Assembly: GCF_054482595.1 (NCBI RefSeq)
Contig: NZ_CM137008.1
Length of the DNA stretch: 64,000 nucleotides
Direction: 5' to 3' (one strand)
The position numbers are program-made. Of this stretch, positions 30,201 to 33,200 are shown piece after piece; the stretch's first letter is position 1; each line of letters opens with the position of its first letter.

Positions 30201-33200
30201 GTGGCACTCAGACTTACGCATCCCTGCTCTAACTTAACATAGTCTGCTATGATAGCGCTCTCTTTACCAATAAAGCTCGCTTATATATCAAAGATACCTT
30301 ATTAGGATAAACACAGCTAATAACTTGACAGTGATATCACATAGCACTCACACCAGATAAGTTTTCCGGTTGAGTTTTAGTTTTTGAAAGATTTAATGCT
30401 ATATTTTCTTTTCCAGTAAATGAACTCGCATTAACTCTGAAGCCATTTGGGCATCGCCTTTTTTGATATACGACAATATCTCTCTCTGTTTTGAAGCAGT
30501 ATCAAGGAAGTATTGACAATCATTATCCGGTAACGACTCTCTTGTTTTCTCAAAATAAGCGATTAACACATCAGAGAAAACCTGCAGAACACGATTACCA
30601 CTGGCCTGAAGCAAGAGCAGGTGAAAATCCCGATCATGTTGATCTGCTATTTGTGGATTGTCTGCATTTTCCTCAATCAATCTCAATTCATTTTCAAGTT
30701 TGGAGAGCATCGCTGGGAAAATTCGGCGTGTTGCCAGTGGAATGATCGCGCACTCAACTAAAATTCTGGCCTCTGTAAATTCCGAGATATCAAACCCAGA
30801 TAGATCAAACTGCATCAACAATTGGTCGTTAATACTACTCTGGCCAACGTTTTTTAACAGACTTCCTCTGCGAGGGGCTCGTTCAAGCATTCCCATTTGG
30901 ACGAGAGTACTAAGTGCCTGACGGACTTTATATCGGGAGGTGTTAAAACGAGTTGCAAGTTCCGTTTCTGTTTCTATACGGCCATCGGCTTTACGATTAG
31001 CTTCATCAAGCAAATAATCTTTAATAGATTCAAATAGTTCTTTTCTTTTATCCATAATATACTCTGATTACAGCTCCTATCTATTCATAACTATAAATAA
31101 TATATTAAATTATATTTCTTTATATACTATCATAACAAATTTATTTATCATGTTTATTCGCACATTATGTGTAGACTGGCCCCCTGAATCTCCAGACAAC
31201 CAATATCACTTATTTAAGTGATAGTCTTAATACTAGTTTTTAGACTAGTCATTGGAGAGCAGATGATTGATGTCTTAGGACCGGAGAAACGCAGACGGCG
31301 TACTACACAGGAAAAGATCGCTATTGTTCAGCAGAGTTTTGAACCGGGAATGACAGTCTCCCTTGTTGCCCGGCAACACGGTGTGGCAGCCAGCCAGTTA
31401 TTTCTCTGGCGCAAGCAATACCAGGAGGGAAGTCTTACTGCTGTGGCCGCAGGAGAACAGGTCGTTCCTGCCTCTGAACTTGCTGCCGCCATGAAGCAGA
31501 TTAAAGAACTCCAGCGCCTGCTCGGCAAAAAAACGATGGAAAATGAACTCCTTAAAGAAGCCGTTGAATACGGGCGTGCAAAAAAGTGGATAGCGCACGC
31601 GCCCTTATTGCCCGGGGATGGGGAGTAAGCTTAGTCAGCCGTTGTCTCCGGGTGTCGCGTGCGCAGTTGCACGTCATTCTCAGACGAACCGATGACTGGA
31701 AAGATGGTCGCCGCAGCCGTCACTCAGATGATACGGATGTGCTTCTCCGTATACACCATGTTATCGGAGAGCTGCCCACATATGGTTATCGTCGGGTATG
31801 GGCGCTGCTTCGCAGACAGGCCGAACTTGATGGTATGCCTGCGATCAATGCCAAACGTATTTACCGGATCATGCGCCAGAATGCGCTGTTGCTTGAGCGA
31901 AAACCCGCTGTACCGCCATCGAAACGGGCACATACCGGCAGAGTGGCTGTGAAAGAAAGTAATCAGCGATGGTGCTCTGACGGGTTCGAGTTCCGCTGTG
32001 ATAACGGAGAAAAACTGCGAGTCACGTTCGCGCTGGACTGCTGTGACCGTGAGGCACTGCACTGGGCGGTCACTACGGGCGGCTTCAACAGTGAAACAGT
32101 ACAGGACGTCATGCTGGGAGCGGTGGAACGCCGTTTCGGCAACGAGCTTCCGGCGTCTCCAGTAGAGTGGCTGACGGATAATGGTTCATGCTACCGGGCT
32201 AATGAAACACGGCAGTTTGCCCGGATGTTGGGGCTTGAACCGAAGAACACGGCGGTGCGGAGTCCGGAGAGTAACGGCATAGCAGAGAGCTTCGTGAAAA
32301 CGATAAAGCGTGACTACATCAGTGTCATGCCCAAACCAGACGGGTTAACGGCAGCAAAGAACCTTGCAGAGGCGTTCGAGCATTATAACGAATGGCATCC
32401 GCATAGTGCACTGGGTTATCGCTCGCCACGGGAATATCTACGGCAGCAAGCCAGTAATGGGTTAAGTGATAACAGGTGTCTGGAAATATAGGGGCAAATC
32501 CAATGTGCATGATATTAAGCTATTTGTTGACGAAAGGGATTGGTTATGATGTTATTCGTAATTCAGTTTGCAATAGTACTTACATGCATTGGGATAGGTG
32601 GGCACTTTGGTGGAATCGGCTTAGGGGCGGCGGGGGGATTAGGGCTCGCAATTCTGACTTTTGGTTTTGGAGTCCCGCCTGATTCCCCGCCTATCACTGT
32701 CATTTCCATTATTCTTGCTGTTATCACATGTATTGCTATCCTGCAGGCAGCGGGAGGTCTTGATCTTTTCGTGACAATAGCTGAAAAAATACTGCAAAAG
32801 AGGCCTGGTGCAATCACGTTTCTTGGGCCAGCAGTTGCTTATCTTTTTACGGCAATATGTGGAACTGGTTATGTCGCTTTTTCCATTTATCCTGTTATTG
32901 CTGAAATCGCAGCTGATGCAAGAGTGAGGCCAGAACGCGCCATGTCAATGTCAGTCATTGCCGCCAACTTTGGTCTTATAGCGAGCCCAGTAAGTGCGGT
33001 CGTTACAGGAACGATTGCGGTCTTTTCCGGATTACATGTTTCTGCTTTAGATATTTTATTGATTACTGTACCGGGAACTATTTTGGGGTGTCTTGTTGGT
33101 TGTTTGTTTGTTTATAAACGGGGCCATGATCTTGAAACGGACCCAGAGTTTCAACGCAGAGTTGCAGAAGGTGAATTTGAGTCAGTAAAAACTGGGGAAC

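Follow-up and report, generated by a model that had tools for sequence, protein, structure and literature searches.

An IS2 insertion upstream of a Dcu-family carrier gene in an eroding Escherichia coli accessory island

IS2 fusion promoters have been documented at ampC, acrEF and neoR (review PMC9330008), and in the ampC case (Jaurin & Normark 1983, via PMC9330008) an IS2 -35 element lies 17 bp from a resident -10, with a 20-fold increase (PMC9330008). At the junction of the IS2 minicircle, the promoter Pjunc combines an outward -35 at IRR positions 17-22 with a -10 formed by the terminal TAGACT of IRL, across a required 17-bp spacer that consists of 1 bp of junction and 16 bp of IRR (Lewis et al., PMC3219604, PMC3299598). 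IS2 is also known from the classical polar, rho-dependent insertions in the gal operon (cited in PMC12095673), and in E. coli and Shigella the erosion of accessory islands is driven by insertion sequences. Strong polarity has been described for orientation I of IS2.

Here we analyse an IS2 copy that separates a GntR/FadR regulator gene from a Dcu-family carrier gene in a stretch of 64,000 nucleotides (NCBI RefSeq assembly GCF_054482595.1, contig NZ_CM137008.1), referred to below as the window. As at ampC, the outward -35 end of the element faces the gene and native upstream promoter DNA has been replaced; in contrast to ampC, the slot at 17 bp reads TGTGCA and the only conserved -10-like hexamer lies 24 bp away. 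The -35 element in IRR on which Pjunc depends is unchanged, but Pjunc needs the terminal TAGACT of IRL exactly 17 bp away, and the integrated copy has chromosomal DNA there and no -10. Like the gal insertions, a 1.3-kb IS2 stands between control DNA and the first gene, so that lower distal expression would be expected, although transcription here crosses IS2 in the sense direction and yields G-rich RNA, which leaves the strength of any polarity uncertain. Multiple independent IS hits and truncations in the same ~15-kb island recall IS-driven erosion, except that the coding sequence of the carrier is intact and the lesion lies upstream of it, accompanied by one missense change.

From these sequence comparisons we favour, with moderate confidence, the reading that IS2 arrived recently in an accessory locus already in decay and that its insertion was neutral or inactivating. 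The native, regulated transcription of the carrier would be lost or sharply reduced, no replacement promoter would have formed at the IS2-carrier junction, and residual expression would arise only through weak sense read-through, either from the repressed IS2 promoter PIRL or from native promoters farther upstream whose transcripts run into IS2.

The IS2 copy and its insertion site

The element, its flanks and its internal features are as follows.

31167..31171, no strand: left copy of the target-site duplication, ATGTG (sequence; empty-site comparison)
31172..32502, + strand: IS2 element, divergent isoform (profile matches, inverted-repeat pairing, copy comparison)
31172..31213, + strand: IRL, 42-bp left inverted repeat (comparison with canonical IS2; PMC3299598)
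31219..31227, + strand: PIRL, the element's own weak extended -10 promoter, TGATAGTCT (published position and sequence)
31263..31628, + strand: orfA, 121 aa, IS2 TnpA/repressor (NCBIfam NF006928; Pfam HTH_Tnp_1)
31580..31586, + strand: A6G programmed -1 frameshift window, AAAAAAG (sequence; PMC3299598)
31586..32491, + strand: orfB, 301 aa, DDE/rve catalytic part of the transposase (NCBIfam NF006918; Pfam rve)
32462..32502, + strand: IRR, 41-bp right inverted repeat (arm pairing; copy comparison)
32503..32507, no strand: right copy of the target-site duplication, ATGTG (sequence; empty-site comparison)
32508..32545, + strand: native upstream DNA still joined to the carrier, 38 bp (alignment with six Citrobacter loci)

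The body of the element is complete (1,331 bp, 31172-32502, + strand) and runs from IRL, TAGACTGGCCCCC..., at the left to IRR, ...GGGGCAAATCCA, at the right; the two arms pair as an inverted repeat with termini TAGACTGG... and ...AAATCCA. Its length of ~1.33 kb, its imperfect 41/42-bp terminal inverted repeats with ends 5'-TA... (IRL) and ...CA-3' (IRR), and the overlap of orfA and orfB in the -1 frame at an A6G slippery site are those of the IS2 group. Both products match their NCBIfam models end to end, with 276.4 bits for OrfA against NF006928 'IS2 repressor TnpA' (cut-off 229) and 709.7 bits for OrfB against NF006918 'IS2 transposase TnpB' (cut-off 597). Reading frames, ends and frameshift site are all intact, and the copy is potentially active.

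The outer 31 bp of IRL and the outer 26 bp of IRR equal canonical IS2; IRL differs at positions 32, 42 and 43, the last two of which fall within the published OrfA docking sequence (PMC3299598), and PIRL was located through its published position, IRL bp 48-51 reading TGAT (PMC3299598). The element is 95.6% identical to the FUJ80154 copy, which RefSeq names 'IS3-like element IS2' (58 mismatches, no gaps; OrfA identical, OrfB with 10 aa changes), it has a single mismatch to an IS2 copy in strain E22, and 100%-identical copies are present in another strain. RefSeq labels the variant found here only 'IS3 family transposase', and annotates a 'programmed frameshift' in a 99.9%-identical copy. By convention, isoforms of an insertion sequence share at least 95% nucleotide identity with the reference.

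The corresponding empty site in E. coli SMS-3-5 contains a single ATGTG, and both flanks from the window align to it without other change, so that the repeat is a true 5-bp target duplication, as the sequence-only reading of this region had proposed, and not a chance repeat. Duplications of 5 bp also flank other IS2 copies in the island (GGCGC and GGGAG). The junctions are marked by the k-mers CACATTATGTGTAGACTGGCCCC on the left and GGGGCAAATCCAATGTGCATGATATT on the right, and the element was inserted by ordinary copy-out/paste-in transposition. IS2 is a multicopy element (median of 4 sites in a genome) and could in principle have been misplaced by the assembler through repeat collapse or a chimeric join; we regard such an artefact as practically negligible in view of the perfect 5-bp duplication, the otherwise colinear flanks and an independent public draft contig that carries the identical IRR-ATGTG-flank junction together with a linked SNP.

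The target is a 154-bp AT-rich control region (23% G+C) between the regulator and carrier genes. The IS2 transposase reads toward the carrier, and IRR thus abuts the carrier side. The final base of IS2 is 43 bp from the carrier ATG (32546), and the end of the duplication 38 bp, the distance given earlier. The element parts the carrier not only from the divergent GntR gene, as had been noted, but also from most of the control DNA that the two genes shared (111 of 154 bp). These 111 bp now lie 1.34 kb away and include every upstream sigma-70-like candidate, together with a candidate operator, a stretch that aligns with a Citrobacter palindrome. The native DNA still attached to the carrier, 38 bp long, holds the Shine-Dalgarno sequence AAAGGGA at 32533-39 and, farther upstream at 32511-16, the conserved -10-like GATATT.

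Promoter geometry at the IS2-carrier junction

The insertion has been suggested to activate the carrier or make it constitutive, through a promoter fused at the right end or read-out from IS2, and to uncouple it from the GntR regulator. This has some appeal: fusion promoters of IS2 are known from other genes, the conserved -10-like hexamer directly adjoins the insertion, the element is co-oriented with the carrier, and IRR faces it with an outward -35, whose position we derived from the Pjunc geometry of PMC3219604 and PMC3299598.

32481..32486, + strand: outward -35 hexamer TGGAAA of the IS2 junction promoter (inferred from published geometry)

Co-orientation of IS2 and gene is the classical 'turn-on' orientation II. 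The gene-facing end supplies the -35 half of a hybrid promoter, with its position inferred, but not the other half. At 15-19 bp from this hexamer, the slots read AATGTG, ATGTGC, TGTGCA, GTGCAT and TGCATG, and all five lack the combination of A in second and T in sixth place that marks a -10 hexamer; within the 16-18 bp (optimally 17 bp) of a hybrid promoter there is no -10, GATATT, at 24 bp, being the sole conserved -10-like hexamer. A canonical hybrid promoter was rejected on this spacing. A consensus scan found no + strand promoter-like site across the junction, and in a position-weight scan the upstream candidates of the IS2 allele reached at most 4.8 bits, compared with 7.5-9.7 bits for the native candidates, all of which lie left of the insertion site or span it.

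We also considered a complete outward promoter within the right end of IS2. The highest-scoring sequence, TTAAGT-16-AAATAT, reaches no more than 4.8 bits, and a published reporter assay on the 150-bp IS2 right end detected no promoter activity and found it the least evolvable end tested (Pnew = 0.02; PMC12095673), so that this candidate too was rejected. In the same study, downstream expression was undetectable from promoters lying over 150 bp within the backbone of an IS3-family element (PMC12095673), and PIRL is weak and repressed by OrfA (PMC3299598). Further points against activation come from the population: among ~215 island-bearing complete genomes no convergent insertion occurs at this site, and selection for higher activity fits poorly with a missense change linked to the insertion (Arg20His) and with the frequent knock-outs that the same gene shows in other strains. 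IS2 does have the reputation for hybrid promoters that the sequence-only reading ascribed to it, but its extension to this carrier does not agree with the 24-bp spacing and the negative reporter assay, and we consider activation unlikely. The presence of an insertion sequence beside a gene should be taken as a sign of activation only where the spacing of -35 and -10 is suitable.

Transcription through IS2 faces no evident obstacle, a point in favour of the activation reading. The + strand of IS2 is free of intrinsic terminator-like sites and, as the sense strand, is rich in G and not in C; Rho-dependent polarity is thus not specially favoured and read-through could be appreciable. Composition was accordingly discarded as an argument for Rho-type termination, and this lowered our confidence in the favoured reading of a neutral or inactivating insertion. 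A weak extended -10-like sequence, TGgAAATAT, within IRR is a further counterpoint to it.

The retained DNA provides another, as GATATT and the extended -10-like TGnTATTAA (32510-18) could keep some activity. If either served as a core promoter that still works inside the 43 bp retained next to the carrier, the insertion would be of little effect. In favour of this possibility, intergenic conservation between E. coli and Citrobacter is highest from ATATTAAG to the ATG, and a TG dinucleotide creates the extended -10-like arrangement in E. coli. However, three of the six Citrobacter loci have no T at -7 in the corresponding hexamer (TATACC or TATATC), which indicates that it is not a conserved functional -10, and TATTAA lacks this T as well. 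The DNA now upstream is the G-rich IRR, with a -35 match at only 1-2 of 6 positions, any activator site or UP element would be lost, and the consensus promoter scan does not call the retained site. We therefore judge an insertion of little effect to be decidedly doubtful.

The divergent regulator and the carrier gene

The genes on either side of the insertion, and the best candidate promoter of the regulator, are:

30399..31055, - strand: FadR/GntR-family regulator gene, 218 aa (Pfam GntR and FCD; RefSeq annotation of identical alleles)
31109..31138, - strand: best sigma-70-like regulator promoter, TTGTTA-18-TATAAT (consensus match only)
32546..33862, + strand: DcuA/DcuB-family anaerobic C4-dicarboxylate carrier gene, 438 aa (profile matches)

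The regulator combines an N-terminal GntR winged helix-turn-helix domain (PF00392, 33 bits) with a C-terminal FCD domain (PF07729, 64 bits). Its start now lies 1.49 kb from that of the carrier, compared with 154 bp natively, and its own best sigma-70-like candidate is untouched by the insertion. The divergent pairing of the two genes is kept in all six Citrobacter species and loci compared, which supports a regulatory link and, to that extent, the earlier suggestion that the regulator controlled the carrier. As for a candidate operator, the Citrobacter palindrome GTTATGA-N5-TTATAAC has only a partial E. coli counterpart, left of the insertion. The insertion point itself falls within a perfect 13-bp palindrome, GCACAT-T-ATGTGC, of which the duplication forms the right arm. 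We rejected this palindrome as a conserved GntR operator, as it is not conserved in the six orthologous Citrobacter regions and E. coli has an 11-bp insertion at this point. Likewise, a disrupted RNA element was rejected after Rfam gave no match at the gathering threshold across the 18-kb IS-free locus (L003).

The carrier belongs to the DcuA/DcuB family (Pfam PF03605, 393.7 bits; NCBIfam NF006927, 439.8 bits against a cut-off of 369), but the more specific label 'DcuB-like' given to it before is loose, as the DcuA-length and DcuB-length profiles score nearly equally (439.8 and 435.7 bits). Its nearest relatives are unnamed 'family proteins' of Citrobacter, and it shares 52%, 32% and 32% identity with the three Dcu-family paralogues in the window. 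The ATG at 32546 is the annotated start and is conserved in Citrobacter, and the TTG at 32540 proposed earlier probably precedes the true start by 6 nt.

The reading frame of the carrier is intact, which is a counterpoint to inactivation, but a G>A substitution at 32604, private to this allele, replaces Arg20 with His, an exchange overlooked in the previous reading. In each of 55 relatives the residue at position 20 is R or K, and the His is a candidate loss-of-function change; no PDB relative was found by sequence to provide a structural context for Arg20, and a literature search on this residue returned nothing. The carrier in this strain should be assumed neither normally regulated nor fully functional.

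Distribution of the insertion and state of the island

IS2 is absent from this site in all 5,426 complete E. coli genomes searched; in the six complete-genome records with a query coverage of 80% or more, it lies elsewhere in the island. One draft contig, representing one assembly lineage, shares the right junction IRR-ATGTG-flank and the linked SNP at 32604, and a metagenome scan for the right junction gave 0 matches. Compared with E22, there are 0 differences in window positions 29214-31171 and one in 32503-40000. The view that this was a simple and possibly recent transposition gains support from flanks that are identical or nearly so to those of IS-free strains, from its absence from the complete genomes and from the identical IS2 copies elsewhere. 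The insertion is probably recent, lineage-restricted and neutral or inactivating.

The surrounding island of ~15 kb has suffered several independent insertions of IS2, IS1 and ISVsa5, truncations and pseudogenes in different strains, a pattern that had escaped the sequence-only reading. The same carrier gene is interrupted by ISVsa5 in O177:H21 and, in another two assemblies, cut short at nt 392, and the second Dcu gene is interrupted by IS2 in five genomes. Together with Arg20His, these many independent insertions point toward decay rather than gain of function. An alternative, which we hold to be very improbable, is that the IS2 insertion and Arg20His are two successive selected hits on one transporter, the missense change compensating for earlier mis-expression or both hits amounting to an adaptive shut-down of harmful-substrate uptake.

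Under the favoured reading of a recent insertion in a decaying locus, the event would matter little beyond annotation, as one more strain-specific IS2 in a visibly eroding E. coli accessory island. A more interesting target at the locus would be the four-gene module to which the carrier belongs, comprising the GntR regulator, two Dcu carriers and a second ArgH-like lyase and conserved in Citrobacter; we found nothing specific in the literature on this module or on the island. Were the two hits on the carrier indeed selected, active selection would be at work on the module in extraintestinal or poultry E. coli. Copies of the same IS2 variant also lie in or beside a dcuR-like gene in E22, EC1515 and MEI005.

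The IS2 copy and its insertion site

A 1,331-bp IS2 element, read directly from the window, begins TAGACTGGCCCCCTGAATCTCC and finishes GGGGCAAATCCA, and its termini are imperfect inverted repeats that pair with each other (IRL on the left and IRR on the right, facing the carrier gene). The element and its target comprise the following features:

31167-31171 and 32503-32507, ATGTG target duplication, directly before and directly after IS2
31172-32502, IS2
31263-31628, orfA, encoding TnpA; full-length match to the IS2-specific NCBIfam model at 276 bits, above the curated cut-off, with the expected Pfam domain
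31580-31586, A6G frameshift window, intact
31586-32491, orfB, encoding TnpB; full-length match to the IS2-specific NCBIfam model at 710 bits, above the curated cut-off, with the expected Pfam domain

The sequence-only reading had described an IS2 with an intact ATGTG duplication, and this is borne out by the two copies here against one in E. coli SMS-3-5, where the GntR-carrier intergenic region is an empty site of 154 bp to which the window flanks align on both sides with no further change. The single ATGTG and the colinear flanks confirm the observation and identify a genuine 5-bp target duplication of the IS2 type. The reported distance of 38 bp holds from the end of the duplication to the carrier ATG at 32546, which lies 43 bp from the final base of IS2 itself, while the TTG start at 32540 is probably too early, since ATG 32546 is the RefSeq start for identical alleles and is conserved as the start in Citrobacter. 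Without the insertion, the target forms a perfect 13-bp palindrome, GCACAT-T-ATGTGC (31160-31171 and the first base beyond the duplication), whose right arm less one base is exactly the duplicated ATGTG. We rejected this palindrome as a conserved operator, as it is E. coli-specific relative to Citrobacter; an 11-bp insertion beside it is likewise E. coli-specific.

The window copy appears to be a divergent IS2 isoform in which all parts needed for activity are present. Compared with the RefSeq-labelled IS2 of strain FUJ80154, 58 of 1,331 positions differ (95.6% identity, no gaps), OrfB carries 10 substitutions, OrfA is identical, and there is no change in IRL over its outer 31 bp or in IRR over its outer 26 bp. 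Copies 99.9-100% identical to it are found in a minority of strains; 387 records are at least 99% identical and 6,590 fall at 95-99%. At IS2 positions 32, 42 and 43 (window 31203 and 31213-31214) this isoform departs from canonical IS2, with CACTTATTTAAGTG in place of CACTTAAATAAGTG. The published docking sequence of the OrfA repressor, TAAATAA, is thus altered at its centre and retains its palindromic arms, a change that might alter autorepression of PIRL, the element's own promoter.

A 3.7-kb query across the insertion, compared with complete genomes (5,426 of E. coli), found none with IS2 at this position; in the six records that match 80% or more of its length, IS2 lies at other places in the island. 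A contig of one public draft assembly, GCA_046487635.1, ends inside IRR and has the identical IRR-ATGTG-flank junction; a metagenome scan did not find the right junction. Relative to strain E22 there are zero differences across 29214-31171 and one across 32503-40000. These near-identical flanks, the intact duplication and the lack of a complete genome sharing the insertion bear out the earlier suggestion of a simple, possibly recent transposition, and on these comparisons the insertion is recent and limited to one lineage.

A decaying accessory island

The locus lies in an AT-rich accessory island that adjoins pepT and dcuC; of 5,426 complete E. coli genomes, about 215 carry this island. In order come an AspA-like lyase, a DcuA-like carrier, an AnsB-like asparaginase and an orphan DcuR-like response regulator, then about 1 kb of non-coding DNA and the genes below, beyond which lie remnants of pseudogenes, fragments of ClbP and thioesterase genes among them:

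30399-31055, minus strand, GntR/FadR regulator
32546-33862, plus strand, the carrier considered here, of the DcuA/DcuB family
33978-35294, minus strand, second Dcu-family carrier
35359-36741, minus strand, ArgH-like lyase

This module keeps the same arrangement in six Citrobacter species, with carrier protein identity of 85-87%. IS2 sits between the carrier and its divergent regulator and, as had been noted, separates them; the accompanying proposal that the regulator probably controlled the carrier is supported, not proved, by the pairing conserved in Citrobacter.

In E. coli the island appears to be an IS sink under weak constraint: ISVsa5 lies inside the same carrier gene in O177:H21, two further assemblies have this gene truncated at nucleotide 392, five genomes carry a canonical IS2 inside the second carrier gene, and in E22, EC1515 and MEI005 IS2-variant copies lie within or beside the dcuR-like gene. 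Gene fragments, an internal stop and a frameshift at about 37830-42574, placed by coordinate transfer from annotated relatives, are further evidence of erosion:

about 37830-38170, ClbP-like and thioesterase gene fragments, debris of a pks island
39386-39802, IbrB-like gene with an internal stop
40401-42574, frameshifted TonB-dependent receptor

The DcuR-like response regulator (28695-30398 region) scores 313 bits to the DcuR model and is without an adjacent sensor kinase. About 980 bp separate it from the GntR gene; this stretch, in which EC1515 and MEI005 have their IS2-variant copies, holds no ORF above 57 aa (28001-30000 has 35% G+C) and is probably a decayed dcuS-like gene. The window has five Dcu/DcuC-type carrier genes (4398-5696, 20197-21558, 25233-26567, 32546-33862 and 33978-35294). 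Two aspartate-ammonia-lyase-like genes (2775-4225 and 23627-25077), separated by about 19.4 kb and inverted relative to each other, are a substrate for homologous-recombination inversion; we infer that they are about 99% identical, each being at least 99.1% identical to both O177:H21 copies. A degenerate IS2-like relic at about 1340-2740 on the minus strand has an IRL-like end (2711-2740, 3 mismatches to IS2) and only fragmentary transposase-like reading frames, and tblastn of IS2 OrfA and OrfB gave no match to it at E<=1e-3. IS1-like copies at 16422-17193 and 58004-58771 are 99-99.6% identical to the O177:H21 IS1A/IS1B copies, and the start of a 1,742-aa ORF (58745-63973, minus strand) adjoins the second.

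Promoters at the junction

The IS2 minicircle junction promoter, as described by the Lewis laboratory, combines a Pribnow box in the terminal TA... of IRL with an outward -35 in IRR; the spacer between them must be 17 bp long and includes the single junction base (PMC3219604, PMC3299598). By this geometry the -35, at IRR positions 17-22, is here TGGAAA (32481-32486), and a fusion promoter of the Jaurin-Normark type would require a -10 hexamer starting at about 32504. None of the five slots for 15-19 bp spacers (AATGTG, ATGTGC, TGTGCA, GTGCAT and TGCATG) has A at position 2 together with T at position 6; a consensus scan found no plus-strand promoter-like site across the junction, and a crude position-weight scan of the IS2 allele upstream of the ATG gave nothing above 4.8 bits. 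A massively parallel reporter study picked the 150-bp IS2 right end as a parent because it lacked detectable promoter activity; among the tested ends it had the lowest likelihood of gaining activity by mutation (Pnew 0.02), and promoters more than 150 bp inside an IS3-family backbone gave undetectable downstream expression (PMC12095673). IS2-driven activation of the carrier, as first proposed, is unsupported by the junction geometry and these reporter data, and we consider it unlikely.

Four candidates for the native carrier promoter can be placed:

starts 31105, TTAAAT-17-TATCAT
-10 at 31163-31168, abutting the insertion point, TTTATT-17-CATTAT, aligned with a conserved Citrobacter TATTAT
spanning the insertion, TTCGCA-17-TAAGCT
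32511-32516, (T/G)ATATT, conserved, without a recognisable -35

IS2 displaces or splits every candidate except (T/G)ATATT, which has itself lost all DNA upstream of position -13 and is not a robust -10, because three of the six Citrobacter loci have no T at -7 in the hexamer aligned with it. That the insertion has no real effect on the carrier appears quite improbable. We favour, as reasonably likely, a mechanism in which IS2 would attenuate or abolish regulated expression of the carrier within a decaying accessory locus, an event of an already-known kind and of low general interest. The main uncertainty in this explanation is possible low-level read-through, unregulated or mis-regulated: PIRL is weak and OrfA-repressed (PMC3299598), a scan found no intrinsic-terminator-like site in IS2, and since its sense strand is G-rich, composition gives no argument for Rho stopping sense transcripts.

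A lineage-specific substitution in the carrier

The exact carrier protein sequence occurs in only 3 contigs of a large collection, against 13,552 blocks for the neighbouring regulator sequence, because of a private G>A at 32604 that produces Arg20His (codon 20). None of 16 other E. coli alleles or of the six Citrobacter orthologues has the substitution; it is shared by the draft contig with the same IS2 junction, the sole other public contig having it. Residue 20 lies within a G-G-(R/K)-x-G-G-x-G-L-G motif, and of 55 other family members aligned (32-100% identity), 45 have R here, 10 have K and none has H; a search by sequence gave no PDB relative for placing Arg20. Across the approximately 9.5 kb aligned with E22 (29214-31171 and 32503-40000), both lineage-specific changes, IS2 and Arg20His, strike the carrier.
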